A stretch of DNA of 64,000 bases from Escherichia coli (GTDB lineage Bacteria > Pseudomonadota > Gammaproteobacteria > Enterobacterales > Enterobacteriaceae), in NCBI RefSeq assembly GCF_030013205.1, contig NZ_CP122648.1. One strand, given 5' to 3'. This document shows positions 6,955-24,382 of the stretch, piece after piece. Made by a program: the position numbers and the translations under genes. The notes beneath the pieces are model-generated. The model was given only the letters and a program-made list of their open reading frames with translations, was not told the DNA's origin and did no database searches. Position 1 is the first letter of the stretch; each line of letters starts with the position of its first letter.

Positions 6955-7095
6955 TTACTGCTTACACTGTAAGAACGCCGCAAACTCCGCTCCCCAGAAA
7001 CTCATCCGTATTTCGCACAGCGAACCGTGCAACATCCAGATGATGAGGATTACCGTCACGCAGAACGTGATGGCTGTAAGCGATTTTTGCGACAT
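6955..7095 (-). CDS. hok: Hok/Gef-family type I toxin (46 aa)
   Basis: Unlisted short ORF MSQKSLTAITFCVTVILIIWMLHGSLCEIRMSFWGAEFAAFLQCKQ: single TM helix followed by SLCEIR and E-F/V-AAF motifs typical of Hok/Gef; AAGGAG Shine-Dalgarno 9 nt upstream; structured flanks. Confidence 0.65.
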   Translation of the reverse strand: MSQKSLTAITFCVTVILIIWMLHGSLCEIRMSFWGAEFAAFLQCKQ

Positions 7096-7285
7096 AGCAC
7101 TTGCTCCTTTTCCGGAGAGGCGCTAACCTTTCACTTGCTTAGGGTAGACGGTTAGGGCCTCGGTTAAACAAAAGTGTTTTCCGGGGCCTTTCCACATCTG
7201 GCCTTCGGGTATTCCCTCCGACCATCAGCCGAAAGGCACCCGCGCGTAATCTATCGCTTTTTTGTTACTCCGGCAATTCTGCTTG

Positions 7286-7546
7286 TTAATTCTGAGGTAA
7301 AGGCAAACTCATCTGATTGTTTCCCCTGTGTGAAGCTGGTAGCTCATGCCACGGGATACCTTCTGAAGAGTGAACGCCGGAGGCGTGTTTCGATGTGAAT
7401 TTATGGAAAGCTTCCAGTGTTGAGAAGCATACGCCGCATTCCAGATTGTTACACTGGTAATACTTTTGCCGCACGGTGTTTGAATCATTTTCCGGACGAC
7501 TTGTGCGGATACGGGCAGATGCGCCACAAAGCGGACAACGGAACAT
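7286..7546 (-). CDS. ogr: Ogr/Delta-type zinc-finger late transcription activator
   Basis: 86-aa ORF MFRCPLCGASARIRTSR...YYQCNNLECGVCF, with the Cys-X2-Cys...Cys-X4-Cys pattern and N-terminal similarity to P2 Ogr. Confidence 0.85.
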   Translation of the reverse strand: MFRCPLCGASARIRTSRPENDSNTVRQKYYQCNNLECGVCFSTLEAFHKFTSKHASGVHSSEGIPWHELPASHRGNNQMSLPLPQN

Positions 7547-7630
7547 AGCGACCTCCCTTAACGTGGTGTTGCCGCTATTCTAGATTGTACGTTCCCTAAT
7601 TCCAACTAACAGCTCGCTCTGTGCGAAGAG

Positions 7631-7686
7631 TGAAAATTGAACTTTCAATAGTTGTTGAACTTTCATACATCCAATGTGAAAATTCA
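7631..7686. promoter_or_regulatory. Direct repeats (TTGAACTTTCA x2, TGAAAATT x2) upstream of the orphan cargo gene
   Basis: 11-bp exact repeat at 7637..7647 and 7655..7665, plus TGAAAATT at 7631 and 7677, in the AT-rich leader of the 7738 ORF. Confidence 0.35.
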
Positions 7687-7737
7687 TACGTTCATAATAG
7701 TTAAAATTTAAAATATTGTATATCAGGTGAATAAAGC

Positions 7738-8760
7738 ATGGGAAGAGATATAACGCTGTACCCTAAAAAAGCAACTAGAAACGAACTTAAAAATTACCTT
7801 GAAAATTTAGGTTTTAAAAGGTGTAAACATTTGTGGGAATGGCCCCAAGGAACGTTGAATTACTCTTGGTTTGATGATACGGACTTCAAATCTACAGATG
7901 GAGTTTCGGCTGATATATATCCTGTTTCAAATGACGAATTACACATATCTGGTAATAAATGGGCATTGCATGTGCGTAATTTATATAGCGCTAGTTGGCA
8001 TGATGTAAAAATGCTTAATGATGTTCTAAAAGGCGCAAGGAGTCTTTTTGGTGGAACACTTATAGGTGATTATGGGAAAAATAGGTACGCTCCTCTATGG
8101 AAGGATTCTAGTAGTCCGATCAGTCGTGGCATTTCTTCAATATTTAATCATGTCCATCATGAGATTTCCGCTGTTAAACATGCCTTACCTGAACCTTCTA
8201 TTAAATTAAACCTACCGGAAGATGGCGGCTTATCCGAATACTTTGATTACATGCAATGTATGGATCCCAGTAGAGTTATATATAATGGATTAGTACCTTT
8301 TGCGGTTGCTATGTTTGAATACTTTTTCTCTAGAGCTTTTCAAATACTTATAAAGTACGATCCTTTCGCAATAGCAAAAAGAACATCGTATAAGCAAAAA
8401 GTTGATTTTGATATTCTGCTTGAGATAGAGAAAGGAAATATTTCAATAGAAAGTGTTATTGCAAGAAATTACACTTTTCAAAACTTAACCCACCTAAACA
8501 AAGCATATAAAGAGTGGCTGGATATAGATGTGAGAGCGATTCTTTATAAGAAAAAAAGAATTGGAAAATCAGTTGATTTTCTTGAGAATCGAATTTCTGA
8601 AATCATACAATATAGACATGGGATAGTTCATCACTTTGAGTTGGATAGGACCTTAAATCGGGATGGATATATTCATATATTAGATGCGCTAGAAAAAAGC
8701 ATAATTGAATTTATCCATTACATAGAAGGCAAATACAAATTTAAATTAAATGCGTATTAA
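7738..8760 (+). CDS. Orphan AT-rich cargo gene; hypothetical protein with HEPN-like R-x4-H motif near the C-terminus (candidate abortive-infection/defence protein)
   Basis: 340-aa ORF on the strand opposite the flanking late genes D and ogr; low GC; strong start context; C-terminal ...YRHGIVHHFELDRT...; followed by a hairpin. Confidence 0.6.
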   Translation: MGRDITLYPKKATRNELKNYLENLGFKRCKHLWEWPQGTLNYSWFDDTDFKSTDGVSADIYPVSNDELHISGNKWALHVRNLYSASWHDVKMLNDVLKGARSLFGGTLIGDYGKNRYAPLWKDSSSPISRGISSIFNHVHHEISAVKHALPEPSIKLNLPEDGGLSEYFDYMQCMDPSRVIYNGLVPFAVAMFEYFFSRAFQILIKYDPFAIAKRTSYKQKVDFDILLEIEKGNISIESVIARNYTFQNLTHLNKAYKEWLDIDVRAILYKKKRIGKSVDFLENRISEIIQYRHGIVHHFELDRTLNRDGYIHILDALEKSIIEFIHYIEGKYKFKLNAY

Positions 8761-8788
8761 GCAATCAACCTTACATAGGGATGACAAA

Positions 8789-8826
8789 GTCCGCTTCTGA
8801 CACGGAGCGGACCGTCGTTTATGTTT
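8789..8826 (+). terminator. Putative intrinsic terminator after the orphan cargo gene
   Basis: gtccgc...gcggac stem followed by a T-rich tract (cgtcgtttatgttt). Confidence 0.4.
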
Positions 8827-8880
8827 AATTCTATACTGTAAACTTGCCAGTTTAAGTTTGAGCTAATATGTCTAAGTTGC

Positions 8881-9990
8881 TCACTCTGTTTCTGCTATCC
8901 ATTCCGGGATTTTTGCCTCAAGCTCAAGCTGTGTGGTAAAGCCGCTGTTATCAATGGTGTGCTCGGCTTTCGCAATAATCCAGTCCTGATTATCAATCTC
9001 GCTTTTAAATCCTGTTACCGTGCCATGCATTTCGGGGTAGAGTTCTGCACGTCCACGCACCAGCGTGATGGAAAACGATGCGGCTCCGCGTTGTAGCTGC
9101 TGCCACTTTGCCGCCGCTGCGCGTCTTGCTGCCTGCTCGTTCTGATAAGTCTTGCGTAACACAAACACATTGCCTTCCGCGCCTTCCATATAATCACCTT
9201 CACGGCTGCTGCTTTTCTCCTTTTTGGGTTTTGGCGGTTTGCGGCGTTTCACGCTGACTTTTTTCTTTTTCCCGTAATTAAGATCAAGCCAGTAAGCGCG
9301 TACCCCCGTATACGCCTCGCGGTCAGCAATGCGGAACTGATGGCGATCGCCGCTGCTGCGTGTGATGGCGAACGATGGCAACGGCTGGCCCTGTGCGTTC
9401 ACGCCACCGCCGGGCATGATGAATAACAGATTACCGCTTTTTACCGTGGTGATTGCGCCCAGCATTTCCGCCATGCGCGTAAGGAAGGACATGTCGCTTT
9501 CTTCAGTCTGGTCGGCGTGGTCGATTTCGATATCCATCAGCATTTCGCTGATTTGCGGTTTCAGGCCGTACCGATGAGCGATGGCGGATACCACACGTTC
9601 AACGGTCACATCATGCCAGGACGCCTCACGTTTAACATTAAATTCATCCCGAAAATCTGCGCTTCTGGCTGAAACAGTCAGCCTGTCCGGCGGTCCTTCG
9701 TGAGCGATTTCATCAATAATGTAAGTGCCTTTTTCTGTCAGCGGTTCCCCTTTCCAGCCAATGAGAACCGTCAGACGCGCGCCCCGTGGCGGTAGCTGCA
9801 ACTGGCCATCGGCATCATCCAGCGTGATGGTGAGCTGGTCCGCCTCAAATCCCCGGTTGTCGGTCAGTGACAGGCTCATCAGGCGTTCTGCCACGCCGGA
9901 CAGCGTTTTACCCTCGGCGAGAATATCAAAATCCGGCATTTTCACGGGGTCTGTGCCCTGACTGAGCAATTGCATGGTGGTGTCGGTCAT
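8881..9990 (-). CDS. P2 gpD-like tail protein (late control gene D family)
   Basis: ORF 8881..10122; likely true start is ATG at 9990, preceded by GGGAGGG (MTDTTMQLLSQGTDPVK...); Lys-rich central stretch and overall gpD-like size. Confidence 0.75.
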   Translation of the reverse strand: MTDTTMQLLSQGTDPVKMPDFDILAEGKTLSGVAERLMSLSLTDNRGFEADQLTITLDDADGQLQLPPRGARLTVLIGWKGEPLTEKGTYIIDEIAHEGPPDRLTVSARSADFRDEFNVKREASWHDVTVERVVSAIAHRYGLKPQISEMLMDIEIDHADQTEESDMSFLTRMAEMLGAITTVKSGNLLFIMPGGGVNAQGQPLPSFAITRSSGDRHQFRIADREAYTGVRAYWLDLNYGKKKKVSVKRRKPPKPKKEKSSSREGDYMEGAEGNVFVLRKTYQNEQAARRAAAAKWQQLQRGAASFSITLVRGRAELYPEMHGTVTGFKSEIDNQDWIIAKAEHTIDNSGFTTQLELEAKIPEWIAETE

Positions 9991-10147
9991 CTGTTCCCTC
10001 CCTGTGCGGCATGGTCGCATGTGCGTGCGGAGGGGGTTACTGCTTTTTGTTGTCGCCGTGGCGGGAGAATAGCGCAGGGGTGAGATTACGCGCGTGGTGG
10101 GTGATGATTGTTGCTGAATCATTTAACGGATACAAGGGGCTGAAGCT

Positions 10148-11332
10148 ATGAGTGAAACTCGTTTTCATGGTGCCCGTGTTACGGAAAATACCGACCTGGT
10201 AACAGCGATTAACGATGTTGATTCCAGCGTTATCGGTATCGTGGCAACGGCGGATGATGCGGACGCGAAGCTGTTCCCGCTGAACAAGCCCACATTGCTG
10301 ACCCGCGTCAATGACGTGCTGGGAAAATGCGGAACAACGGGGACGCTTTATCGTGCGCTTAAGGCCATCGCAGACCAGGTGAGCACAAAGGTGATCGTCG
10401 TTCGCGTGGCTGAACACAAAGAAGAAGACGGAAAGACGCAGGATCAACTGGTTATCGGTGGTTCTGAGGATGACGGCAGCTATACGGGGATGTATGCGCT
10501 GCTTGTTGCAGAGCAGGATGAAAGCATCGGATACCGTCCGCGTATTCTGGCCGCGCCGGAGCTGGACACGGAGGCTGTAACAAAATCCCTGTGCGTGATT
10601 GCAGGTAAACTGCGCGCGTTTGTGTATGCCTCATGTCACGGCTGTAACACGATGGCTGAGGCGATTACCTACCGCCAGAAATTCAACGAACGTGAGGTGA
10701 TGCTCTTATGGCCGGACTTCATCGCCTACAACCCGAAAAGTGGCAAAAACGAAACGTTCCCCGCGCCTGCCTATGCGTGCGGCCTTCGTGCGTACATTGA
10801 CCATGAGCAGGGCTGGCACAAATCGCTGTCCAACGTTCCGGTTAAAAATGTGCTGGGGATGTCCAGGCATGTGTTCTGGTCGTTGCAGGCCGAAGACAGT
10901 GATGCCAACAGCCTCAACAACAAAGAAATCACGACCATTATTCGTCGCAACGGGTTCCGCTTCTGGGGCAACCGCACACCGGAAACGAACGCCTACATCT
11001 TTGAGGTGTATACCCGAACCGCACAGGTGCTGGCTGATTCAATTGCGGAAGCGCAGTTTGAAACCATCGACAGTCCACTGACGCCTGCGAACGTGAAAGA
11101 TGTTATCAGTGCCATCAGGGCAAAACTGGATTCACTGGTTACTGCCGGGAAACTGATTGGGGCGTCGTGCTGGTATGACGTGGTGGATAACGGCACCACG
11201 AATTTACGTCAGGGGCGCGTGCGTATTCGCTACAAATATACGCCTGTTCCCCCGCTGGAAGACATGGAGCTTTACCAGTCGTTTACTGATGAATTCTTTG
11301 GTCCCGCATTTGCGGTGCTGGGAGGTGCCTGA
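10148..11332 (+). CDS. Contractile tail sheath protein (P2 gpFI-like)
   Basis: 394 aa; aligns by eye with P2 FI (FPLNKP, CxKLRAF, IRRxGFRFWGNRT, YxYTPVPPLE motifs). Confidence 0.9.
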   Translation: MSETRFHGARVTENTDLVTAINDVDSSVIGIVATADDADAKLFPLNKPTLLTRVNDVLGKCGTTGTLYRALKAIADQVSTKVIVVRVAEHKEEDGKTQDQLVIGGSEDDGSYTGMYALLVAEQDESIGYRPRILAAPELDTEAVTKSLCVIAGKLRAFVYASCHGCNTMAEAITYRQKFNEREVMLLWPDFIAYNPKSGKNETFPAPAYACGLRAYIDHEQGWHKSLSNVPVKNVLGMSRHVFWSLQAEDSDANSLNNKEITTIIRRNGFRFWGNRTPETNAYIFEVYTRTAQVLADSIAEAQFETIDSPLTPANVKDVISAIRAKLDSLVTAGKLIGASCWYDVVDNGTTNLRQGRVRIRYKYTPVPPLEDMELYQSFTDEFFGPAFAVLGGA

Positions 11333-11844
11333 TGGCTGTACCAAAACATCTTCGCTTTTTTACGCTGTTTGTGGATGGTGAAAACGAAGTGGGTAAGGTG
11401 ACGTCCGTCACTCTGCCTAAGCTGACGCGCAAAACCGACAGCTACCGGGGTGGTGGCATGATGGGTGCGGTAAGTATTGATCTCGGTCTGGACGACTCCG
11501 CGCTTGATGCGAGCTTTGTCATGGGGGGCGCAGTTCGTGAGCTGTTCCTTAAGTATGGCGGCACGATTGACGGCACGCTGCTGCGTTTTGCGGGTGAATA
11601 CTACACCGATGCAGAAAGCGACCTGTATGAAGTCGAAATGCGCGGACGTGTGACGGAAATTGATATGGGGGAAGCCAAACAGGGCGAAGCCACATCACAC
11701 ACTTACGCCATTAAAAACACCTACTACAAGCTGAGTGTTAACGATCGCCCGTTGTGGGAGATTGACCTGCTGAACTTCATTTACCGGAAGGACGGCAAGG
11801 ACATTGTGCCCGATCGCATCCGTTCCGCGCTCGGGCTTGGCTGA
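11332..11844 (+). CDS. Tail tube protein (P2 gpFII-like)
   Basis: 170 aa, immediately after the sheath gene with overlapping stop/start (ATGA). Confidence 0.85.
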   Translation: MAVPKHLRFFTLFVDGENEVGKVTSVTLPKLTRKTDSYRGGGMMGAVSIDLGLDDSALDASFVMGGAVRELFLKYGGTIDGTLLRFAGEYYTDAESDLYEVEMRGRVTEIDMGEAKQGEATSHTYAIKNTYYKLSVNDRPLWEIDLLNFIYRKDGKDIVPDRIRSALGLG

Positions 11845-11899
11845 TAAGTAATATGCAGGCGGCGCAGTGCGTCGCCTCTGACTGAAAAGGAGACAACTG

Positions 11900-12274
11900 A
11901 TGAAAGACATCGATACTGAAACCCGGAATAACACCGTGGCGGATGATGTGACGGCAGGTGAGGATATGGCTGTCGAACATGGCGTAAAACTGACCCGACC
12001 AATTGAGCGTGGTGGCGAAAAAATCACGTATGTGGAGATCACCGGGGCTATTGAACAGGCTGGATCCCTGCGTGGTCTGTCGCTGTCTGATGTGCTGAAT
12101 CTGAAAGCGGATACCATGTTCACGCTGTTGCCTCGCGTGACCTCGCCACGACTGGATGAAGTGATGATTAAAAAAATGTCGTCACGCGATTTTATTCAGT
12201 TGTGCGCTGTGGCTGTAAATTTTATGAGCGAGCCAGACTCTGGCGCGAAGAGCGTGCAGGAGACGGCAGCGTAA
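11900..12274 (+). CDS. Tail assembly chaperone (P2 gpE-like)
   Basis: 124-aa ORF between tube and tape-measure genes, with an overlapping -1 frame ORF (E'). Confidence 0.75.
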   Translation: MKDIDTETRNNTVADDVTAGEDMAVEHGVKLTRPIERGGEKITYVEITGAIEQAGSLRGLSLSDVLNLKADTMFTLLPRVTSPRLDEVMIKKMSSRDFIQLCAVAVNFMSEPDSGAKSVQETAA

Positions 12275-12438
12275 TCACCCTGGTGTGCTTTGAGCACATC
12301 GAAGATCTGGTGGCAGATATCGCCGCCATTTTTAACTGGTCGCCCGCCGAAATCTTCATGATGACGCCCGGCGAAGTGGTTAGCTGGCGTGAGCGGGCGG
12401 CACTTCGCAGCGGGAATGCAGACAATGAAGACTCTTGA
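12202..12438 (+). CDS. E' extension, -1 frame of the tail chaperone (predicted E+E' frameshift product)
   Basis: ORF in the -1 frame overlapping the 3' end of E; candidate slippery heptamer A-AAT-TTT at 12217..12223 in the E frame. Confidence 0.5.
   Translation: MRCGCKFYERARLWREERAGDGSVITLVCFEHIEDLVADIAAIFNWSPAEIFMMTPGEVVSWRERAALRSGNADNEDS
12217..12223 (+). promoter_or_regulatory. Candidate programmed -1 ribosomal frameshift site (AAATTTT)
   Basis: XXXYYYZ heptamer inside the E/E' overlap, in the correct phase for E to E' slippage. Confidence 0.4.
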
Positions 12439-15232
12439 CATCCGGGTCGCTTTCAGCGCCGTTGACAGGCTGACCCGGCCTGCCGAAAACGCCCGCCGCC
12501 TGATGGGGCAGTTTGGTGACTCCATCCAGCGAACGCAGGGGGCGATCAAAAATCTCGAGCGTCAGGCGCGTTCATTTGAGCGCGCCCGTGACGCTGTCAG
12601 TAAAGCGGATGCTGGCATATTGAAAGCACGACGCCAGCTTAACGCCCTTAATCAGTTACAACGCACGGGTACAGTGCTCAGCGAAAAACAACAAAAGCTG
12701 ATGCAGCAGTTAAGCACCCGGCTTGAACGCCTGAATGAATCGCGCACACGGGAAATTCAGAAAATGCGGGAGCTTGGCGGAGAGCTGAAACGCCACGGCA
12801 TTTCCCTGACAGGCAGCGATAACACCATCCAGCAGGCCATCAGACGCACCGAACAGTACAACAACCAGCTTGAACGCGAACGGCAGGCGCTTGCGCGTGT
12901 AACACGGGCGCGTGAGCGGTATTCGCGCGCGCAGGAAACAGCGGGAAAACTGAAAACAGGTGGTGCGCTGGCAATTGGTGCGGCAACGGCGGGCGGCTAT
13001 GCTGCCGGGCGTTTTTTGCAGCCTGCGATCGGGTTCGGCAAAGAGATGTCCCGCGTTCAGGCACTGACGCGAATCGACAAAAACAGCCCGCAGTTTAAGG
13101 CGCTGCGTGAGCAGGCGTTAAAACTTGGCTCTGAAACACAGTTTACTGCGAGTGATGCCGCCAGTGGGCAGAGCTTTCTGGCAATGGCTGGTTTTACTCC
13201 GCAGGCCATTCAGGCCGCATTGCCCGGTGTTCTTAATATGGCGCTGGCAGGTGGCGTCGAACTCGGCGAGACGGCTGATATAGGCTCCAATATCCTCACA
13301 CAGTTCAACCTGACAGCCGATCAAATGGACCGTGTTGGCGATACGCTGACAGCAGCATTCACCCGGACCAATACTGATTTACGCGCGCTGGGCGAAACCA
13401 TGAAGTATACCGGTCCGGTTGCCGCAAAACTTGGTATCAGTCTTGAAGAAGCGGCGGCCATGGCCGGGATGCTTGCCAATAATGGTCTTCGCGGAAGCGA
13501 TGCTGGTACGGCCATGCGCGCAAGTCTGTCCCGCCTTGCATCACCGCCAAAAGCTGCGGCTGATGCACTGAAAGAGCTGGGGGTGTCAGTTGCTGACGCC
13601 AGAGGCAAAATGCGCCCGATGGAGGATGTGCTGCTTGATCTCTATAAGGCGACACAAAAATACGGACAGGTGGACCAGGTTTCCTTCTTCAAGGACATCG
13701 CCGGAGAAGAGGCGTTCGTTGGTTTGCAGACGCTTGTTGCGGCGGCTGGTTCAGGAGAGCTGCAAAAACTGACCAGAGAATTGCAGGGGGCAAGGGGAGA
13801 GGCCGATCGCGTCGCAAAAGTAATGGCCGATAATCTTGATGGGGACCTGAAAAATCTCGACAGCGCATGGGAAGGTCTTCGTATTCGCATCAGTGATCTG
13901 GTTGACGGTCCGCTGCGTTCTGTCACGCAGTGGCTCACGCGGGTGCTTGAAAAAATCACCTCGCTGGCGCAGGCCCATCCGGTACTGACGCGCCAGCTAC
14001 TGATAGCAGGCGGTGCGTTGCTGGCAATGACTGCAACGATTGGCTCGTTGTCGCTGGTTATTGGGGTGCTTTACGGGAAGCTGGCCACCCTGCGTCTTGG
14101 TTTTGACATTCTTACCCGGTCAATGAATGTCGTCAGGGTGTTGCCTGCGCTGTGGGGAATGGTGACGGGTTCCGTTTCTTTACTGGGAGGCGCCATCGGG
14201 GCGTTGTTCAGTCCGGTTGGTCTTATCGTGGCTGCGCTTGCCGGAGCTGCCGTTCTTATCTGGAAATACTGGGATCCCATCAGGGCATTTTTTGCCGGGG
14301 TGTTCAGCGGGATTATGGAAAGGCTGACCCCGTTGCGCGAAACCTTTGAACGGTTTGGTCCTGTTTTTGACACAATCGGAAGCGGGATCAGCCAGGTGTT
14401 TAACTGGTTTAAATCGCTGCTGTCACCGATGGAGTCCAGCAAGGAAACGCTGGATAAATGTACCAGTGCTGGCGAGATATTCGGTAACGTTCTTGGCGGT
14501 GCGTTACAGCTTGTTCTGACACCTGCAAAAATGCTACTGGATACGCTGGCGTGGATACTTGAAAAACTTGGCGTCCTTCCGGATGAAGCGGAAAGGGCGC
14601 GCAAGAAAATCGAAGACGCACAGCGTGCGGCCATTCTTCAGGACAAGGTTGTCTTGCTTCAGGGTGACCTGGCGAAAATCAATCCGCCGAAGCCTGTGGA
14701 AAATGGCAATGGCACCGGAGGTAATAAACCCAAAGACAACAAACCGCTCACAGACAGCAATACCGGGACGCTACGCAGACTCAGCAAAATTGCTGATAAC
14801 ACAGGTAAGCTGGTTGATGAGACGAAAAAACGCATTGGCCCCGGCGATATTGTCTTTAAGAACCTGCCCCGCGCACTTGCTGTTCGTGGAGAGTGGCAGG
14901 AGCGGAAGATTGCGCAGGTCAGTAAGCCTGCCCCCGCAATTAATATCACACCCGTGGTCCCGGCTCCGCTGCCTCCGGCGCTGGTCCCTGTTGTTGCGGC
15001 CAGCTCCCGCCCGGTGGCGGAGGCCATACGATCTCCAGTGGCATCAGTTCCTGTAACTTCCCGTAACCGGGAGCCTGTTGCCTCCGGATTTGGTGGTGAA
15101 ATTCATGTTCATCTGCATAACGTTGTTACGCAGAATCCCCGCGAACTGGCGAAACTGGTCGGTGAAATGGTCAGGGCAGAAATGGAACGGCGCGCCCGTG
15201 CCGGGCGTGGCAGTTTTTACGATAAAGATTGA
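12389..15232 (+). CDS. Tail tape measure protein (P2 gpT-like)
   Basis: 947 aa, long coiled-coil-rich N-terminus and C-terminal hydrophobic segments, position after E/E'; true start probably a downstream Met (12416 or 12425). Confidence 0.85.
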   Translation: MSGRHFAAGMQTMKTLDIRVAFSAVDRLTRPAENARRLMGQFGDSIQRTQGAIKNLERQARSFERARDAVSKADAGILKARRQLNALNQLQRTGTVLSEKQQKLMQQLSTRLERLNESRTREIQKMRELGGELKRHGISLTGSDNTIQQAIRRTEQYNNQLERERQALARVTRARERYSRAQETAGKLKTGGALAIGAATAGGYAAGRFLQPAIGFGKEMSRVQALTRIDKNSPQFKALREQALKLGSETQFTASDAASGQSFLAMAGFTPQAIQAALPGVLNMALAGGVELGETADIGSNILTQFNLTADQMDRVGDTLTAAFTRTNTDLRALGETMKYTGPVAAKLGISLEEAAAMAGMLANNGLRGSDAGTAMRASLSRLASPPKAAADALKELGVSVADARGKMRPMEDVLLDLYKATQKYGQVDQVSFFKDIAGEEAFVGLQTLVAAAGSGELQKLTRELQGARGEADRVAKVMADNLDGDLKNLDSAWEGLRIRISDLVDGPLRSVTQWLTRVLEKITSLAQAHPVLTRQLLIAGGALLAMTATIGSLSLVIGVLYGKLATLRLGFDILTRSMNVVRVLPALWGMVTGSVSLLGGAIGALFSPVGLIVAALAGAAVLIWKYWDPIRAFFAGVFSGIMERLTPLRETFERFGPVFDTIGSGISQVFNWFKSLLSPMESSKETLDKCTSAGEIFGNVLGGALQLVLTPAKMLLDTLAWILEKLGVLPDEAERARKKIEDAQRAAILQDKVVLLQGDLAKINPPKPVENGNGTGGNKPKDNKPLTDSNTGTLRRLSKIADNTGKLVDETKKRIGPGDIVFKNLPRALAVRGEWQERKIAQVSKPAPAINITPVVPAPLPPALVPVVAASSRPVAEAIRSPVASVPVTSRNREPVASGFGGEIHVHLHNVVTQNPRELAKLVGEMVRAEMERRARAGRGSFYDKD

Positions 15233-15238
15233 GGAGTC

Positions 15239-15733
15239 ATGGCCATGATGATGATCTACGGCATGTTTGTTTTTGAGCTGCGCACGCTGCCGCATCAGCA
15301 GTTACAGCAAAACAAAAGCTGGCGGCATGTGAAAAATGAACGCGTTAACCGTTCAGCAAGCTGGCAGTATATCGGTGCAGGTGATGATCGCATCGTTCTT
15401 TCTGGTGTGCTTTATCCTGAAATTACAGGTGGCGAAGTGTCGCTGTCGCTGCTGACCACGCAGGCGTATACAGGACGCCCCTGGCCTCTTATTGATGGCG
15501 TCGGGCAGATTTACGGCATGTATGTCCTGACCGAAACGAATACGACCCGTTCCGAGTTTGATCGCTACGGTAAGGCGAAAAAGATAGAATTTTCACTGAC
15601 CCTTGAACGCTGTGATGAGGATTTGCGGGAGCGCCTGCAATCCTCATCGTTCAGCGATATGCTGTCCGGCTTCAAAGATAAAGTGACATCATCCCTTAAC
15701 AGCGCGGCCAGTTCAGTTAAAGGGCTGTTCTGA
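15239..15733 (+). CDS. Tail protein (P2 gpU-like)
   Basis: 164 aa MAMMMIYGMFVFELRTLPHQ...; N-terminal similarity to P2 U; directly follows the tape measure gene. Confidence 0.75.
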   Translation: MAMMMIYGMFVFELRTLPHQQLQQNKSWRHVKNERVNRSASWQYIGAGDDRIVLSGVLYPEITGGEVSLSLLTTQAYTGRPWPLIDGVGQIYGMYVLTETNTTRSEFDRYGKAKKIEFSLTLERCDEDLRERLQSSSFSDMLSGFKDKVTSSLNSAASSVKGLF

Positions 15734-15903
15734 TTTAATGCTGGCCACTCATACCCTCATACCTGGTAATAAGTGGCCAGTCTTAACACTCACCATTTGA
15801 TTGCACCAGTGTTAACGATTTGTTACTGGACATCAGGCACGCTGGATAGCCAGTAGAAACATACCATTAAAATTATTACAATAATTGGTCACATGATTAT
15901 CTT

Positions 15904-16467
15904 ATGCTGAATAATAGAGATATGAATATTAATGAACTTAAAGATTGTATTCACTATGAAGTAATCGGTAGCGAGCGTCCTTTCTCCTGGCGAAAGGCAA
16001 TTGTTCGCGCAATAAAACATAGAAGAGTTCGTTATTTATTTTGGTGGCGCATAGCCAAATACCTTTTTGATAAAGGCGGATACTGTCGGAAGATTGCGGG
16101 GAAAATAGAACGTTTCATTCTTGATAAATATAATGTAACAGTCCCTTTAACTGTAAATATAGGGAAAGGCTTTGATATTTCTTATCTCAACAGTGTTGTT
16201 ATCGGTCACAAAGTAACAATCGGTGAAAATTGTTCAATAAAACCAGGGGTAACTATTGGGCTGCGTGGTGATTTTAATGATATGGATATTGTTATAGGAC
16301 ATAATGTGACCATTGGTTGTAATGCCACCATTCTTGGTGGCAAAGTGCGTATAGGAAACAATGTCACAATAGGTGCTCATGCATTGGTATTGCATGATAT
16401 TCCAGATGATTCAACATTCATCACTAAATTTCAGTCTGAAGTTATCTGCTCGTCCTCCCGCACATAA
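15904..16467 (+). CDS. Hexapeptide-repeat (left-handed beta-helix) acyl/acetyltransferase, cargo at the Z/fun position
   Basis: 187 aa with tandem [LIV]-G-x-x-x-x hexapeptide repeats ([22 protein letters not shown]...[16 protein letters not shown]...); AT-rich; convergent with and overlapping the 3' end of the tail-fibre assembly gene. Confidence 0.7.
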
Positions 16468-17048
16468 CCCTGATTCATCAGCTCTGGCCATACGATATCC
16501 GGAGCTGTACTGGTGTCAATTCTACTCACTAATACTCTGTATTTTCTCCAGGAATCCAGTTGTGAATTTTCCTCGTTTGTTGCTATTTCAAGATTAACTG
16601 CATCCTGCAGAATTGCGATGTTATCTGTTGCTTCCTGGATCAACCTTGCCTTTTTCTCTTCCGCTTCCCGTATCCGAAACAGTTTTTCTGCTTCCTCATC
16701 CTTCACCCAGGATACGCCGTCCCACTTCTGATACTCCCCTGCTGGCGACAACCAGGTGACATTCTCTGGTAGCGGTCCGGGTTCAGAAATAAACAACGCG
16801 TCCCCCGATGCCACGTCATAGACCGTTTTACCACGATGGTCTTCAACAATATTCCACGATTCATTTTCACTGTTAAAAACTGCCACAAAGCCAGCAGGAA
16901 TTTCCGGTGGGGCGATATCTGTAGAATTGGCTGGCAGCCCTGTATGAGGTGGAATATATGCGTCACCTTCACCAATAAACTCATTAGTTCCGGCCAGCAG
17001 GTTATAAATTTTTACAGTACGTGATTGTTCACTCATTCTGAATGCCAT
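16431..17048 (-). CDS. Tail fibre assembly protein (P2 gpG / Tfa family)
   Basis: 205 aa; typical Tfa N-terminal region; start overlaps the stop of the upstream tail-fibre fragment (TAATG). Confidence 0.8.
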
Positions 17049-17395
17049 TATGCAAGCCTCACAATATAATTAAATGCGATGTTTTTAACGGTGTTTTCCG
17101 CGTTACCAGCAGCGTTAACGGTGATGGTGTGTCCATGTGAACCAATCGCAACAGAGTGCGTATGAGCGCCAATAGCTGATTGAGTGTGACGCCATACGCC
17201 CCACGGACCATCAGTGCCATTCCACTTATTGGCGAGTTTACGCATGTATACATTGCCGTCTCTCGTGATAAAACGTTGCGTGCCTGCAAAATTGCCAGCT
17301 GCAAAAACCTCAAGCACACCGACAGCATTATCTTCCGGGAAATTTTTCTCCAGTGTTGCGTTGGTGGATGTTGCTTTAGACCAGATGCCAGTGCA
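17048..17395 (-). pseudogene. Tail fibre gene (H-like), 3' fragment only
   Basis: Open frame from the stop at 17396..17398 to 17048 encodes ...[40 protein letters not shown], a typical tail-fibre C-terminus; no N-terminal part; fused out of frame to the truncated capsid gene. Confidence 0.7.
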
Positions 17396-18033
17396 TCAGC
17401 GTTCGCATACTTACCCGCGTGCGCCACGGTGTTGTCCATGTTACGGGAGGTCAGCGTCACGTCATTCATAACGCGTTCGCTGGCGTCGGTTCTGATGTGC
17501 TCCAGCCACCCCACGTTAACGTCCTGAAGCAACTTGTTGGTGCTGAAGTTGGACTCATCCGCGTGAGACGTGCCGTTGAAACCGATCATGATTCGGTCAA
17601 GCGCCACCTGTCGGGCAATCTGTGCGCTGATGCGGGACTGAAAATCGCTGTGTGCCGACCAGGCATCAAGCTGCGGATACGAAATAAACGTGTCGTAGTT
17701 CACCTGTTCGCACTGGTATTTGCGGTTTTTCAGATCAACCACGTTATTCGGGTTACGGCGTTTTGTTCCGTCATAACTGGTATTCGTGCGCGCAATCGGT
17801 CCTGTGGTATCCAGGAGGATTTTTTCGCCCTTCTGGTCGGTCACGCCGATCACGTTAATTCTTTTTGTAAATTCGGTGCTTTCCTTTGAGGCGTTTTCAA
17901 AACGCTGCTGTACCGAGGGTTCCACGGTAAATCGCGATACCAGTGCGGAAACCGGGATATTGTTAAGCGACGCCTGCTGCGCCATATAGCAACCCAGCTT
18001 GTTGCGGGTAATATCTGACATCACCAGATTCAT
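17381..18033 (-). pseudogene. Major capsid protein gene (P2 gpN-like), truncated after ~217 codons
   Basis: N-terminal 217 aa align with P2 N (FTVEPSV, GEKI, KYxCxQ, IMxGFNG, LQDVxVGWL, RVM); after ADALAS the frame runs into tail-fibre DNA and yields low-complexity sequence. Confidence 0.75.
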
Positions 18034-18056
18034 AAAAAATTTGCTCCTTTGTCTTA

Positions 18057-18926
18057 TCAGAAGTCAGCCAACTGGTCGGAGGCTGCGCCTGTTGCGGTGA
18101 ACCGGTTCTGCGGATCGCCGTCCTGCGTGCGCAGTTTTTCCTTCAGTTCTGCCAGCTCTGTGGTCAGTAAAGTGATTTTCTGGCTGTCCTGCTGATGGCG
18201 GGTTTCCAGCACATTAAAACGGTCGATAATGTCGGCCTGTGACGTTGCGACACCTTCCACCGCTTCCTGAATACGGGAGAAACTGGCGTCATCCGCTTTG
18301 CGGCCACGGCCAATAATCCCCATAACGCGGTTAAACCACTGGGTGCCTTCCTCCTGACGTTGTTCGGTGAGTTCGATAAGTTCTGACTCCATAGCGGCGG
18401 TAAACATCGCCACGTCTCCCTGCTGACAGTTGAATGTCATCAGTTGCATACGTTGTTGTGCCGCAAAGGCCAGACGTTCCGTGCCCAGGCTGGCGGGGGT
18501 GTCGGTCATTGCCAGCCCGCGCAGGTAAGGGCCTCCCGTGATGGTTGACTGTGGTTCCAGCTCAATACTGGAGTAAATTTTTTTACCATCGTTAAGCAGG
18601 GACATCATGCGAGCGGTCGGCTCAATTTCGGCATACAGTGCCGTGCGACCTGCCAGCGGGCCATCGGTTATGTCTTCGGTGCTCAACCCCACAACATCGC
18701 CCATAGCGGAAAACTCGCTACCGGGGAGTGGTGACAGGATGTGCTCAATATTCACACGTGCACCATAAACGGACGGGTTATAACTGGTGGCGGCAGCTTT
18801 CAGCATGTCGCCGTTGATTTCGCGCCCGTCTGCCGTTACACCGGAGACAGCCACGCGAAACTTTTTGCGGGATGTCTTTTTTTCATTAGCCATAGTTTTT
18901 GCCCCTCTGACTGGTTCTTCAGTCAT
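18057..18926 (-). CDS. Capsid scaffold protein (P2 gpO-like)
   Basis: 289 aa, similar to P2 O (FRVAVSGVTADGREI..., GLAMTDTPASLGTE); divergent from the terminase gene. Confidence 0.85.
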   Translation of the reverse strand: MTEEPVRGAKTMANEKKTSRKKFRVAVSGVTADGREINGDMLKAAATSYNPSVYGARVNIEHILSPLPGSEFSAMGDVVGLSTEDITDGPLAGRTALYAEIEPTARMMSLLNDGKKIYSSIELEPQSTITGGPYLRGLAMTDTPASLGTERLAFAAQQRMQLMTFNCQQGDVAMFTAAMESELIELTEQRQEEGTQWFNRVMGIIGRGRKADDASFSRIQEAVEGVATSQADIIDRFNVLETRHQQDSQKITLLTTELAELKEKLRTQDGDPQNRFTATGAASDQLADF

Positions 18927-19047
18927 GATGGCAAAGCGTAACAGGCTGATACAAAGGGCTTTTGTTGTAAGAAAACAGTCAGAACAGGGGGTTAAGGAGA
19001 ACGGTTTCGCGCGCGGGTAATCTTCCTGTAATTACTCAGGGGGAGCA

Positions 19048-20799
19048 ATGATTCAGGACGCTTTTGTGCGCCAGCGTGCGCGACAACTTTACTGGCAGGG
19101 TTATCCGCCCGCAGAAATATCACGTCTGATGGGAATAAACCCGAACACGATTTATGCGTGGAAAAAACGCGACCAGTGGGATGAAACGCCACCCGTGCAG
19201 CGTGTCACGCAGTCCATCGATGCGCGCCTCATCCAGCTTACTGAAAAACAGAATAAAACAGGCGGTGACTTTAAGGAAATAGACCTGCTGACCCGGCAGC
19301 TTAAAAAACTGCATGATGGCCAGCCGGATGTGACGGCCACAGGAAAGAAAGGCCGGGCGAAAAAACTCAAAAATCATTTCACGCCGGAACAGATTGCCGC
19401 ACTGCGGGAAAAAATCATCAGCAGGCTGGAGTGGCATCAGCGGGGCTGGTTTGACTCCCTGACCCTTTGCAGGGAAGCCGGGATACGTAACAGGATGATC
19501 CTGAAATCCCGACAGATTGGGGCGACCTGGTATTTTGCACAGGAAGCACTGCTGATGGCGCTGCGTGACGATGTGGCGCAACCTTACCAGCGTAACCAGA
19601 TTTTTTTGTCTGCGTCGCGTCGTCAGGCGTTCCAGTTTAAAAGCATTATTCAGAAGGCCGCGGCTGAAGTTGATGTGGAGCTGAAAGGGGGCGATAAAAT
19701 CATCCTCTCCAACGGCGCAGAGCTGCATTTTCTCGGCACTTCTGCTGCGTCGGCACAGTCCTATACGGGCAATTTTTATTTTGATGAATTCTTCTGGGTC
19801 AGTCGCTTTGCTGAACTGCGCAAGGTGGCTGGCGCTATGGCAACCCTCAGCGGACTGCGGCGCACCTACTTCTCCACGCCATCCACCGAAACGCACGAGG
19901 CATACGCCTACTGGAACGGCGACCGCTGGAACGAGAAAAAGGCCACGCATAAACGCCAGCGTTTTTCTGTGGACTGGAAAACGCTGCATAACGGGCTTAT
20001 CTGCCCTGACCGGACGTGGCGGCAAATTGTCACGCTGGAAGATGTGGTTAATCACGGCTGGAAACACACCGATATTGACGAAATCCGTGATGAAAACACC
20101 GAAGACGAGTTCCTCAATCTCTATATGTGTGAGTTTGTTCGCGAAGGGGAATCGGCATTTAACCTGAATATCCTGATTGGCTGCGGTGTTGACGGATACG
20201 ACGACTGGAAAGACTGGAAACCTTTTGCTCCCCGCCCGATGGGGAATCGTCCGGTATGGATTGGGTATGACGCAAACGGCAGCAGTGGCAACGGCGACAG
20301 CGGCGCTGTGTCCGTGGTGGTTCCTCCGGCTGTTCCTGGTGGCCGTTTTCGAACGGTGGAGACGCGACGCGTTCAGGGGCTGGAGTTTGAAGAACAGGCC
20401 AGAGTCATTGAAGAGTTCACGTATCGCTACAACGTGGAACACATCGGCATTGATGTGACGGGCGGGAACGGGGAGGCTGTTTATCAGATAGTGAAACGGT
20501 TTTTCCCTGCTGCTATTCCGTACACCTTCACGCTGTCATCAAAACGGTCGCTGGTACTGAAAATGCTGCAAATAATGCGTGCCGGGCGGTGGGAATACGA
20601 TCGCGCCGAACGCGAGCTGGTCGCGGCCTTTAACGCCGTGCGTAAGGTGAAAACACCGGGCGGCTTTATCACTTACGAAACGGACCGCGCGAGGGGGATC
20701 AGCCACGGCGACCTTGCGTGGGCAACCATGCTTGCTGTCATTAACGAACCGATTGGCGGCGAAGGAGAAAACGAGCGTTTCACGGTTATGGAGTTCTGA
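19048..20799 (+). CDS. Terminase large (ATPase) subunit (P2 gpP-like)
   Basis: 583 aa with N-terminal HTH-like region and nuclease-like C-terminus; size and position as P2 P. Confidence 0.85.
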   Translation: MIQDAFVRQRARQLYWQGYPPAEISRLMGINPNTIYAWKKRDQWDETPPVQRVTQSIDARLIQLTEKQNKTGGDFKEIDLLTRQLKKLHDGQPDVTATGKKGRAKKLKNHFTPEQIAALREKIISRLEWHQRGWFDSLTLCREAGIRNRMILKSRQIGATWYFAQEALLMALRDDVAQPYQRNQIFLSASRRQAFQFKSIIQKAAAEVDVELKGGDKIILSNGAELHFLGTSAASAQSYTGNFYFDEFFWVSRFAELRKVAGAMATLSGLRRTYFSTPSTETHEAYAYWNGDRWNEKKATHKRQRFSVDWKTLHNGLICPDRTWRQIVTLEDVVNHGWKHTDIDEIRDENTEDEFLNLYMCEFVREGESAFNLNILIGCGVDGYDDWKDWKPFAPRPMGNRPVWIGYDANGSSGNGDSGAVSVVVPPAVPGGRFRTVETRRVQGLEFEEQARVIEEFTYRYNVEHIGIDVTGGNGEAVYQIVKRFFPAAIPYTFTLSSKRSLVLKMLQIMRAGRWEYDRAERELVAAFNAVRKVKTPGGFITYETDRARGISHGDLAWATMLAVINEPIGGEGENERFTVMEF

Positions 20800-21845
20800 T
20801 GAGCAGAAAAAATAAAAAAGTGCGCATGAGTTCACGCATTGATCTCGCTGATGCGCTCAGGAAAGAATCATCGCTCAGTGCATTCACATTTGATGGTCCT
20901 TATCGCCTGACCGGGCATGACCTGCTGGACAATATGTACTGTGCTGATAACGGGCGGTGGTATGAAACCCCGGTGGACTGGTACGGTCTGGCAAGAGCAG
21001 CCCGGCAAACGTCCTGGCATCAGTCTGCGCTTTACTTTAAGCGCAATGTATTACTCGGTTGCTACATCCCGCACCCGCTGCTTTCCCGGCAGGATTTCTC
21101 GGCGCTGGCGCTGGACTGGTTTGTGTTCGGTAACGCATTCCTTGAGCTTCGAAGCAATATGCTCGGCGAACCGCTTAAATTACGGCACGCACTGGCGAAA
21201 TACATGCGACGCGGAAGCGATCTTGAATCATGGTGGTATGTGCAGGATGGCAAGGACGCGTTCCAGTTTCGCCCTGGCAAAGTGTGCCACCTGATGAATC
21301 CGGACATTAACCAGGAAATTTACGGCATGCCGGAATATCTTGGCGCATTACTCTCGGCAAGCCTGTCTCATTCGGCGGACATGTTCAGAAAACTGTATTA
21401 CGACAATGGATCCCACGCCGGGTGCATTATCTACATCGGTGCAGCGCAGGTAAACCGCGAAAGCATGGACTCCCTGAAAGAAACGCTACAGGGTGCGCGT
21501 GGTGGTGGTGCGTTTAAAAACGTGCTCATTCATGCGCCCAACGGGGGCAAAGAGGGGGTGCAAATTTTGCCGTTCCAGCAGATCACCGCAAAGGATGAGT
21601 TCATGAATGTTAAGGCGGCATCCCGTGATGATGTGCTGGCTGCGCACCGCGTTCCGCCGCAACTGATGGGGGCGATGCCGGGTGAAAAAAGTGCGTTTGG
21701 TGATGTGGAGAAGGCCGCGCGGGTTTACGCAATTAACGAGCTGATGCCCGTCATGGAGGCCATGAAGCACATCAATGACTGGCTTGGCGAAGAGGTGATC
21801 CGCTTTAACCCTTACGCACTGTTAGACACCCAGCCCACATCCTGA
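20799..21845 (+). CDS. Portal protein (P2 gpQ-like)
   Basis: 348 aa immediately after the terminase gene (ATGA overlap); P2 portal is ~344 aa. Confidence 0.8.
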   Translation: MSRKNKKVRMSSRIDLADALRKESSLSAFTFDGPYRLTGHDLLDNMYCADNGRWYETPVDWYGLARAARQTSWHQSALYFKRNVLLGCYIPHPLLSRQDFSALALDWFVFGNAFLELRSNMLGEPLKLRHALAKYMRRGSDLESWWYVQDGKDAFQFRPGKVCHLMNPDINQEIYGMPEYLGALLSASLSHSADMFRKLYYDNGSHAGCIIYIGAAQVNRESMDSLKETLQGARGGGAFKNVLIHAPNGGKEGVQILPFQQITAKDEFMNVKAASRDDVLAAHRVPPQLMGAMPGEKSAFGDVEKAARVYAINELMPVMEAMKHINDWLGEEVIRFNPYALLDTQPTS

Positions 21846-21861
21846 CGCGCTTCGCTTGTCT

Positions 21862-21906
21862 GCTGCTTCGCCGGGGCATAAAAAATTTATGCCCCGGCGA
21901 AGCAGC
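21862..21906. terminator. Long GC-rich perfect hairpin after the portal gene (bidirectional terminator; cos region lies beyond)
   Basis: gctgcttcgccggggcataaa / tttatgccccggcgaagcagc inverted repeat. Confidence 0.6.
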
Positions 21907-22332
21907 TCCTGTATCAGTCAGATAATTTCACGACGCTTTCCTGCTTATTGCCATCATCGACGGTCAGACTCTTACGCAATCCCACCGCGTTGACTGCATG
22001 TTCTTCGACGCCTCAGTGCGATTTTGACGGCCTTACCTTTCACCCCATCAAATTAGAATCCCTCACGTCTTTTTCACACTCAGCGTGAGAAATACAGCCA
22101 TTCTGTTGTGTTGCTGCGACATCGTTCAGGGGATGCTATTTACCCCCTGAAACGCGGGCTGTTCCCCCGTCACCTGCGCGCAGAAAAAACGCGTTTTTTT
22201 GTGCACGTACGGATCCTTGACGGATCCAGCCACCACGCGGGCCGGAAGTACAAAAAGTCGTTCAAAAAAATTGTGCAAACTTGTGCACTATCGTGCAAAC
22301 AAAAAAAGCGCCTTATCGGCGCTTCAAAAGTA

Positions 22333-22966: not shown

Positions 22967-23278
22967 TTACTCAGGAAATAACGCCCGGATATTCCCAGCC
23001 ATCTGGCTGGTTATCTTAGCCACTGGTGCAGACTGTGCTTCAAACTTTTTTGAGCTGATTTGTGTCACAGGTAACATCTCATCATCAGCCCATGCGGCCA
23101 GTCGGTAAGCCTCTGCCGGATTCGTCTTCAGAAGTGCCAGCCCGGCCAGAAAAGCCACGCGTTGGCCGCTTTTGCGGGCTTCTGGTGTAAGGCTGTCCAG
23201 CCAGGCGCATGCTTCTCCTTCGTTCTTGACGGCAGCTGGCTTCAGATAGAAACTTATCCGTCTGGTTGGTGTTGTCAT
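22967..23278 (-). CDS. parR: ParR-like centromere-binding adaptor
   Basis: 103 aa from the ATG at 23278, preceded by AGGAG 7 nt upstream and only 4 nt after the parM stop; resembles R1 ParR (RRISFYLKP...LDSLTPEARKSGQRVAFLAGLALL). The longer annotated ORF 22967..23413 overlaps parM and is rejected. Confidence 0.7.
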   Translation of the reverse strand: MTTPTRRISFYLKPAAVKNEGEACAWLDSLTPEARKSGQRVAFLAGLALLKTNPAEAYRLAAWADDEMLPVTQISSKKFEAQSAPVAKITSQMAGNIRALFPE

Positions 23279-23282
23279 TGGT

Positions 23283-24274: not shown

Positions 24275-24382
24275 TTACGGGATTCTGAAATCCCGTTTTT
24301 GCCTGTTTTATGCGCGCTTCATATATCGCGGCGCGTTTTTTGCTCATTTACGGGATTTGTGAATCCCGTTTCTGTCTGTTTT
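24275..24382. promoter_or_regulatory. parC-like centromere/operator: two 35-bp direct repeats, each holding a 20-bp palindrome, flanking a putative promoter
   Basis: Repeat A 24275..24309 (ACGGGATTCTGAAATCCCGT) and repeat B 24348..24382 (ACGGGATTTGTGAATCCCGT), 73 bp apart, directly upstream of parM; repeat B overlaps the last codons of the A-like ORF. Confidence 0.6.

Follow-up and report, generated by a model that had tools for sequence, protein, structure and literature searches.

The 64,000-nt stretch of DNA analysed here (the window) contains a prophage of E. coli K_EC180, flanked by flk/tagO and pdxB, that is a degraded, defective member of the P88-like branch of Peduoviridae. Genes were mapped from ORFs and PHROG matches and compared with the RefSeq annotation. 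The minus strand carries an ogr/Delta-like zinc-finger late activator (7286-7546; 86 aa; NCBIfam PRK09678, E 1.6e-11, under the curated cut-off) and an intact D gene (8881-9990; 369 aa; phrog_52, E 3e-166) encoding the baseplate hub/VgrG-like tail protein gpD. The first 120 aa of gpD are 99% identical to D of P88, its whole length is 51% identical to D of P2, and the reading frame is open as far as 10122. A 340-aa cargo gene (7738-8760, plus strand) lies between D and ogr; it is found in phage 500465-2 and not in PhiR44_2, has only a weak Pfam match (HEPN_RiboL-PSP, E 3.7e-4) and has no match in PADLOC or NCBIfam.

A 157-bp divergent control region (9991-10147) separates D from a plus-strand block of tail genes: FI (tail sheath; 10148-11332; phrog_23, E 3e-125), FII (tail tube; 11332-11844; phrog_55, RefSeq ‘major tail tube protein’), E (11900-12274; phrog_103) with E′ in the -1 frame to 12438, T (tape measure protein; 12389/12425-15232, the second start being that of RefSeq; phrog_28) and, as the final gene, U (tail protein; 15239-15733; phrog_76, E 5e-75). 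Fusing E and E′ by a -1 shift gives the same C-terminus as P2 E+E′, and A_AAT_TTT (12217-12223) is a candidate slippery heptamer for this predicted event. An inverted repeat directly 3′ of the U stop (15735-15786) would form a stable hairpin (-22.5 kcal/mol, z -4.2), possibly a terminator or a boundary of converging operons. It is followed by a hexapeptide-repeat acetyltransferase cargo gene (15904-16467, plus strand; RefSeq ‘transferase’; EpsC/CysE/WcaB-like in NCBIfam, all under cut-offs) in the ‘moron position 2’ slot, which overlaps the 3′ end of G (tail fibre assembly protein; 16431-17048, minus strand; phrog_105, E 7e-94) by 37 nt. Next on the minus strand are an ′H/N′ fusion (17048-18033), in which ′H comprises tail fibre C-terminal remnants and N′ the N-terminal 215 aa of the capsid protein, and the capsid scaffold gene O (18057-18893; phrog_73 and RefSeq annotation), while P (19048-20799) and Q (20799-21845) lie on the plus strand.

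The ′H/N′ fusion marks a deletion junction at 17388-17390, where ~7.5 kb present in PhiR44_2, from the N C-terminus through the H N-terminus, is missing. At 100% identity this fusion is common to only seven swine E. coli genomes. The integrase gene is frameshifted, and with both changes the prophage is not a complete, inducible genome.

In the P2 record the order is G, Z/fun (minus), then FI-FII-E-T-U-D-ogr, with one strand for all. An earlier note on this DNA, working from the P2 order, had described FI-FII-E/E′-T-U as lying on the plus strand against D, ogr, G and O on the minus strand, with the sheath start facing the D start over 157 bp. ORFs and PHROG matches bear this out (plus-strand block 10148-15733), the distance from the D ATG (9990) to the FI ATG (10148) is exactly 157 bp, and the description is accurate relative to P2 because P2 has all FI-to-ogr genes on one strand. 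D and FI are thus divergent, pointing away from each other, and U converges on G. The neighbour of U had been taken for Z/fun cargo, but it is the acetyltransferase, and no Z/fun homologue is present at this place. As for the proposed in-place inversion cutting D from its operon, the FI-U block and its promoter are indeed inverted compared with P2 and D does form a separate transcription unit, but the event did not take place in this genome.

The same layout is standard in the P88 group. A single unbroken BLAST alignment joins 7000-15738 (ogr to U) to phage 500465-2 (97.7% identity), and over 7000-15738 plus 17388-22000 nucleotide identity to P88, 500465-2 and PhiR44_2 is 94-99%. The D/FI junction is 93.7-99.5% identical in P88, PhiR44_2, P884B11, phiSM, 520873, 503458 and Chuche, and is still detectable at 66-71% identity in phages of Enterobacter, Serratia and Klebsiella. 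The same order is annotated in Xuanwuvirus P88, Gemsvirus 500465-2, PhiR44_2, Reginaelenavirus 3LV2017, Novemvirus phiT5282H, Reipivirus ST16-OXA48phi5.4 and Serratia KSP20, and the junction is colinear in phages of at least five further Peduoviridae genera besides that of P88. Among complete E. coli genomes it was found in 1300 of 5426. D and FI are divergent in all 87 of the related loci fetched that hold both genes, with gaps of 150-157 bp, and a P2-style U-to-D junction, assembled artificially from the window’s own sequence, was found in none of the 1411 genomes carrying these sequences. P88 is a plaque-former with a burst size of ~65 and, in electron micrographs, a long tail (PMC5285337); phiSM is temperate and active (PMC6456863). 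The P88 paper is silent on gene orientation, and we found no explicit description of the P88-type gene order in open-access literature text. The FI-U orientation is the standard, functional gene order of the P88-like branch, a large one among P2-like phages; the divergent arrangement is fixed there and does not stand in the way of full phage function. Because it is standard in this group, the layout here is inherited and old rather than damage or an assembly error.

Three other explanations of the orientation were considered, and each is given almost no weight. The degraded state of the prophage, with its N′/′H deletion and frameshifted integrase, would make a recent private inversion that severed D from its operon plausible if this element were viewed alone. 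The earlier note, which read the locus as an in-place inversion, had itself set against this a family of intact phages sharing the arrangement, and P88, 500465-2, PhiR44_2 and others are such a family. A private event is refuted by the identical layout of viable phages and of 1300 E. coli genomes, and by conservation of the gap, as an element of 150-157 bp, and of its box. The short inverted repeats that the note had suggested looking for at the two junctions were not seen either, a search of 9700-16600 returning nothing there beyond chance level. An assembly artefact, with nothing specific in its favour, fares no better, as the window matches a complete RefSeq chromosome at 100% identity and the same order recurs in independent assemblies, IMG/VR contigs and phage genome records.

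Programmed flipping of FI-U by a Gin/Cin-type DNA invertase draws some appeal from P88 and 500465-2, where a DNA invertase is encoded immediately 3′ of U. However, the window has no invertase gene, the block ends lack inverted crossover sites (the best inverted pair spanning FI-U is 18 nt with 78% complementarity, one arm lying in non-conserved cargo), and the block has one orientation in 87/87 loci, with the flipped junction in 0/1411 genomes; invertase-driven flipping of FI-U is rejected on these results. Tail-fibre and assembly genes are the usual target of invertases of the Mu G and P1 C type, and the invertase of P88 and 500465-2 adjoins duplicated tail-fibre and assembly genes, which by analogy are its probable substrate. 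The lesions that are really private to this prophage are the N′/′H deletion and the frameshifted integrase, not the orientation of FI-U.

The colinear U-D order was found in 360 of 488 phage records, from beta- and gamma-proteobacterial hosts, and is seen in phages of Burkholderia, Pseudomonas, Mannheimia and Salmonella as well as in P2. Phages with the divergent order are monophyletic in trees of both D and FI (simple NJ trees, with seven colinear taxa). Given one divergent clade, and the colinear order in those other phages, the simplest history is a single ancient inversion, and a single origin of the divergent order appears most parsimonious. It would date from the root of the branch and have had one breakpoint between G/cargo and pF and the other between U and D. 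FI-FII-E/E′-T-U and their late promoter would have been inverted, while D-ogr and the genes for head, baseplate and fibre would have kept the P2 orientation. Such an event would have brought the pF activator site beside the start of D.

P2 late promoters share a TGT-N12-ACA element and depend on Ogr (PMC3931495). An exact search of the window for this motif gave no match in the D/FI gap and no enrichment (14 matches vs 16 expected). The right half-site in the window is AGA, and the box becomes visible only once relatives are aligned: an Ogr-type activator box, TGTTGT-N12-AGA, at 10048-10068 (plus strand; inner TGT-N12-AGA, 10051-10068), with its dyad centre at 10059.5. TGT-N12-A(C/G)A is present in 75/75 unique D/FI gaps (length 150-157 bp), at -89 to -97 from the FI ATG; the half-sites are invariant and the N12 spacer is free to vary. 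Several relatives have ACA as the right half-site, and some have a perfect GTTGT-N12-ACAAC dyad. A second TGTTGT-N12-AGA box (18963-18983, plus strand; centre 18974.5) lies in the divergent O/P gap, at a position homologous to that of the activator site which the P2 annotation gives as common to pO and pP. In intact relatives the full motif TTTTGTTGT-N12-AGA is found in the D/FI and O/P gaps only.

Two predicted -10 elements flank the D/FI box, each with the 3′ end of its hexamer 48.5 nt from the dyad centre: GATGAT for FI (10103-10108, plus strand; putative start site ~10115) and an extended -10, TGcGACCAT, for D (10011-10019, minus strand; putative start site ~10004). On the FI side a ‘GA.tAT’ column block is conserved and the geometry agrees with P2 pF; on the D side a conserved ‘TGn-nAnCAT’ block keeps the same spacing across 24 divergent representatives. 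A scan of 9991-10147 found no sigma-70 consensus promoter, as expected for activator-dependent promoters. We propose that the gap may act as a bidirectional Ogr-dependent late promoter, in which one dyad-symmetric Ogr box would lie ~55 nt upstream of two outward start sites, the rightward one serving FI-U and the leftward one D. This would be the scheme of P2, where the RefSeq record has pO and pP share one activator site, each start site lying 55.5 nt from it on its own side. One shared box would thus leave D, as its own transcription unit, still turned on by Ogr along with the other tail genes. Where transcription starts, its dependence on Ogr and the role of the D-side -10 are predictions from sequence. 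The Ogr homologue is divergent, with zinc-finger spacing CX2CX24CX4C and an NCBIfam score under cut-off, and its binding site is for that reason assumed by analogy.

The box might instead serve FI-U only, within the same lineage-typical order, with D expressed from an Ogr-independent promoter or through a second, unrecognised activator site. The weak D-side hexamer (GACCAT) and a predicted D leader of only ~14 nt are in its favour. Against it, the D-side block stands at the exact mirror distance from the dyad in the 24 divergent representatives and resembles the O-side TGcCATCAT of the O/P gap, the D/FI gap offers no sigma-70 consensus promoter, and in P2 there is a precedent, the site common to pP and pO; we regard one-way use of the box as unlikely. 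A bidirectional D/FI promoter is the reading that we favour. In its strongest form, which we hold to be somewhat probable, one ancient inversion would have made the one-way pF of P2 into a second two-way late promoter, with FI-U and D driven in opposite directions from a single Ogr box, and would have placed the virion genes on two symmetric control regions, P/O and D/FI. That these two regions alone would suffice for all virion genes follows from the intact relatives, which have neither an S-V gap nor a pV box. For the overall account, a lineage-typical order that arose by one ancient inversion, with the D/FI gap as a putative bidirectional Ogr-dependent late promoter, we estimate a probability of about 0.88.

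The orientation seen in the window is ordinary for P88-like phages, and not every P2-like prophage can be judged against P2 synteny. Since the alternative order is present in about one complete E. coli genome in four, genome scans would be wrong to report it as a rearrangement. What inactivates this prophage has now been mapped to the N′/′H deletion and the integrase frameshift. The conserved D/FI gap offers a testable case of how one dyad-symmetric activator site could be put to two-way use once an inversion has occurred; if this holds, it would be a natural example of an operon split by inversion with its regulation kept through such a site.

Compared with the P2 F operon (pF-FI-FII-E-E′-T-U-D, then ogr), the genes of the window are homologous one for one (FI ~40% identical over the N-terminal 120 aa), the E/E′ -1 frameshift design is shared, and the activator box lies at -97 from the FI ATG, against -91 in P2. 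In P2, however, the seven genes share a strand, with D last and overlapping the U stop, whereas in the window FI-U is inverted and D is on the other strand. A counterpart of the D/FI gap is P2 pP/pO, where a single dyad-symmetric TGT-N12 box likewise sits midway between outward genes, with start sites ~55 nt to each side, and the O/P gap of the window has the same box as its D/FI gap. In P2 the shared-box design is found at P/O only; in the P88-like branch it is found twice, the second time at D/FI, where two-way use is predicted.

Phages P88 (Xuanwuvirus), 500465-2, PhiR44_2, P884B11 and Citrobacter phiSM have the gene order and orientation of the window from ogr to Q, the P88 group being 94-99% identical to it in the tail block, with 98% identity at the D/FI junction. 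Unlike P88, the window lacks ~7.5 kb, has a frameshifted integrase and carries the 340-aa gene between D and ogr; 3′ of U it has the acetyltransferase in place of the invertase module of P88. Redistribution of P2-type tail genes among late operons, each behind a TGT-N12-ACA-like box, has been described in Stenotrophomonas phage Smp131 (PMC3931495), but the rearrangement there is a different one, in which V/W moved and U-D are still colinear.

The window is identical (100%) to part of the chromosome of the swine isolate E. coli K_EC180 (NZ_CP062203.1, from position 1589940). Host genes (mnmC, fabB, yfcJ, flk and tagO) occupy the first ~6.7 kb, followed by a P2-like prophage that runs from ~6.9 kb to its integrase gene (31254-32257) and lies between flk/tagO on one side and pdxB, directly beyond the integrase, on the other. 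The gene map, from an ORF listing and PHROG profiles, comprises ogr (7286-7546, minus strand), a 340-aa cargo gene (7738-8760, plus) and D (8881-9990, minus); then, all on the plus strand, FI (10148-11332), FII (11332-11844), E (11900-12274), E' (-1 frame relative to E, ending at 12438), T (ending at 15232), U (15239-15733) and an acetyltransferase gene (15904-16467); then G (16431-17048), an 'H/N' fusion (17048-18033) and O (18057-18893) on the minus strand, and P (19048-20799) and Q (20799-21845) on the plus strand. In P2 the order is G, Z/fun, then FI-FII-E-T-U-D-ogr, with the tail genes all on the same strand, and the earlier note correctly placed FI to U opposite to D and ogr when this map is set against the P2 annotation. 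The D and FI start codons point outward, with exactly 157 bp between them. The D start differs by record: RefSeq K_EC180 has 8881-9681 only (266 aa, 'VgrG/Pvc8 family'), phage 500465-2 an extended 413-aa orf running across the putative promoter gap (window equivalent 8881-10122, minus), and PhiR44_2 the 369-aa form, which homology favours.

P88-like peduoviruses normally have this divergent order, which is widely deposited. In a megablast search of phage genomes with window 7000-22000, the ogr-D-FI-...-U stretch aligned as a single piece with phage 500465-2 (97.7% identity); identity was 91-95% to P88, P884B11, 520873, phiSM and Chuche, and likewise to 503458 from D onward only, while PhiR44_2 matched on one strand (82% query coverage). 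In the deposited annotations of relatives, D and ogr run in one direction, FI-U in reverse, and G-H-I-J-W-V onward back in the first direction. A probe across the D-FI junction (window 9400-10750) found a single matching place in each of 13 phage records (93.7-99.5% identity). It also matched, both flanks joined and at 66-71% identity, in Enterobacter phiT5282H, Serratia KSP20, Klebsiella 3LV2017 and ST16-OXA48phi5.4 and about 25 more Klebsiella phage records; annotation bears out the divergent order in the distant genera Reginaelenavirus, Novemvirus and Reipivirus. An IMG/VR scan with a D alignment gave 80 loci (D 69-99% identical to that of the window), and among these and other fetched relatives all 87 loci holding D and FI were divergent, the only colinear locus being that of P2.

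To the earlier note the opposed strands looked like an in-place inversion, against which it named an assembly artefact, or a family of intact relatives with the arrangement, as refuting. An in-place inversion is unsupported, as the junction is common to viable phages and 1300 of 5426 complete E. coli genomes have it as one place, and an artefact fares no better given how widely the arrangement is deposited; related intact phages, including P88 and phiSM, do have the identical order. P88 forms plaques (burst size about 65) and has a long tail in EM images (PMC5285337), and phiSM, a temperate phage, is active (PMC6456863), so the arrangement is fully functional. A synthetic P2-style junction (window U end plus D start) was absent from all 1411 E. 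coli genomes carrying these sequences, and the orientation is therefore fixed, without flipping. No open-access papers discussing the divergent order were found. The match to the junction probe is split in several O157:H7 strains into two pieces lying ~1.2 kb from each other, and the probe's initial ~245 nt (within D) find no match; the annotation places an IS30-family element under the match, and it appears to disrupt the prophage in or beside D.

A tblastn probe joining the P2 U C-terminus to the D N-terminus identified the colinear junction in 360 of 488 phage records, with hosts including Escherichia, Yersinia, Salmonella, Klebsiella, Pseudomonas, Ralstonia, Burkholderia, Mannheimia and Stenotrophomonas, and annotation confirmed colinearity in six genomes of six genera; P88-like records gave two half-matches. 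The 24 non-redundant divergent representatives group together in the NJ trees of D and of FI, as a single long-stemmed clade apart from P2, SEN1, SopEPhi, ST11-OXA245phi3.1, Dobby, the Mannheimia phage and ST79. From these simple trees, the most economical reading would be that a single inversion took place where an enterobacterial sub-branch arose. The short inverted repeats sought at both block ends, as the earlier note proposed, did not exceed chance, as expected of an old event.

The cause of the prophage defect is a private N'/'H deletion, not the FI-U orientation. Window 17173-17390 corresponds to the PhiR44_2 H gene (11698-11915 of that record) and 17388-18100 to its N and O genes (19442-20153), matches distant enough in PhiR44_2 that about 7.5 kb must be missing. 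The join (17388-17390) is a 3-bp overlap that joins N' of the capsid gene to 'H, a remnant of the tail fibre (17048-18033), with loss of M, L, X, the lysis genes, R, S, V, W, J, I and part of H. The junction was found at 100% identity in only seven complete genomes, all from swine. The integrase is also frameshifted (RefSeq).

Directly 3' of U is a stable hairpin (15735-15786; -22.5 kcal/mol, z -4.2), beyond which lies variable cargo convergent with G. In P2-like phages this slot, flanked by G and FI, is known as 'moron position 2' (PMC3573123), and it has kept its place beside G. Here it holds a hexapeptide-repeat acetyltransferase (EpsC/CysE/WcaB-like, all below family cut-offs) overlapping the G 3' end by 37 nt, whereas P88 and 500465-2 carry a DNA invertase and alternative fibre genes, ST16-OXA48phi5.4 carries DUF262 genes and PhiR44_2 is almost empty. 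Phage vB_EcoM-613R2 has the acetyltransferase-G-'H module at 97% identity.

The 340-aa cargo gene between D and ogr, on the strand opposite to both, is found in 500465-2 and missing from PhiR44_2. Its sole match is a weak one to Pfam HEPN_RiboL-PSP (E 3.7e-4), with none in PADLOC or NCBIfam; it may be defence-type cargo in a slot not usually among the listed P2 hotspots. Within the prophage, ParM-type plasmid segregation and partition genes (22967-24242, minus) adjoin a 940-aa replication endonuclease (24319-27141), longer than P2 gpA. The left flank of the window is colinear with the 500465-2 record (NC_049343.1), which, although labelled 'complete phage genome', contains host mnmC, fabB, an MFS transporter, flk and tagO and is therefore a mis-delimited prophage excerpt.

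All 75 unique D-FI gaps contain TGT-N12-A(C/G)A starting 89-97 nt upstream of the FI ATG, with the D ATG 151-158 nt upstream of it. In a box-anchored alignment of the 24 divergent representatives, little or nothing changes in the half-sites and T-rich left flank (TTTTGTTGT ... A.A aCc), and the sequence of the 12-nt spacer is essentially random; a perfect GTTGT-N12-ACAAC dyad is seen in several relatives. Two more conserved blocks mirror each other around the dyad centre (10059.5): an FI-side -10-like 'GA.tAT' (GATGAT, 10103-10108, plus) and a D-side extended -10-like 'TGn-nAnCAT' (TGcGACCAT, 10019-10011, minus), both hexamers ending 48.5 nt from the centre. This geometry matches P2 pF (TGT 91 nt upstream of the FI ATG; -10 ending 49.5 nt from the box centre, mapped start 7-9 nt further) and the single activator site that the P2 record annotates as serving both pP and pO, whose start sites lie 55.5 nt to each side. 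The gap has no sigma-70 consensus promoter, which fits activator-dependent late promoters, and the P2 late promoter consensus TGT-N12-ACA is Ogr-dependent (PMC3931495). Given the box conservation, the -10 geometry and the Ogr-like zinc-finger gene at 7286-7546, we propose that the 157-bp gap acts as a bidirectional Ogr-dependent late promoter, with predicted starts at ~10004 for D and ~10115 for FI-U; the inverted block would have taken its own promoter along. This putative two-way promoter is a modest, testable addition.

An identical box type is present in the O-P gap (18963-18983), with TGcCATCAT on the O side, 49.5 nt from the box centre, and the full motif is limited, in PhiR44_2 and P88 (both intact relatives), to the D-FI and O-P gaps. 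A perfect TGTTGT-N..-ACA box (TGT-N12-ACA; 22104-22121), in the cargo region beyond Q and with a counterpart in PhiR44_2 (24770-24787), could be a further Ogr-responsive site. In P2, orf30 and pV lie between S and V, whereas in PhiR44_2 and another intact P88-like relative R, S and V abut or overlap (14463-16136 and 15026-16699, respectively) with no box upstream of V, so that the O operon may continue through G, leaving just two bidirectional late control regions.
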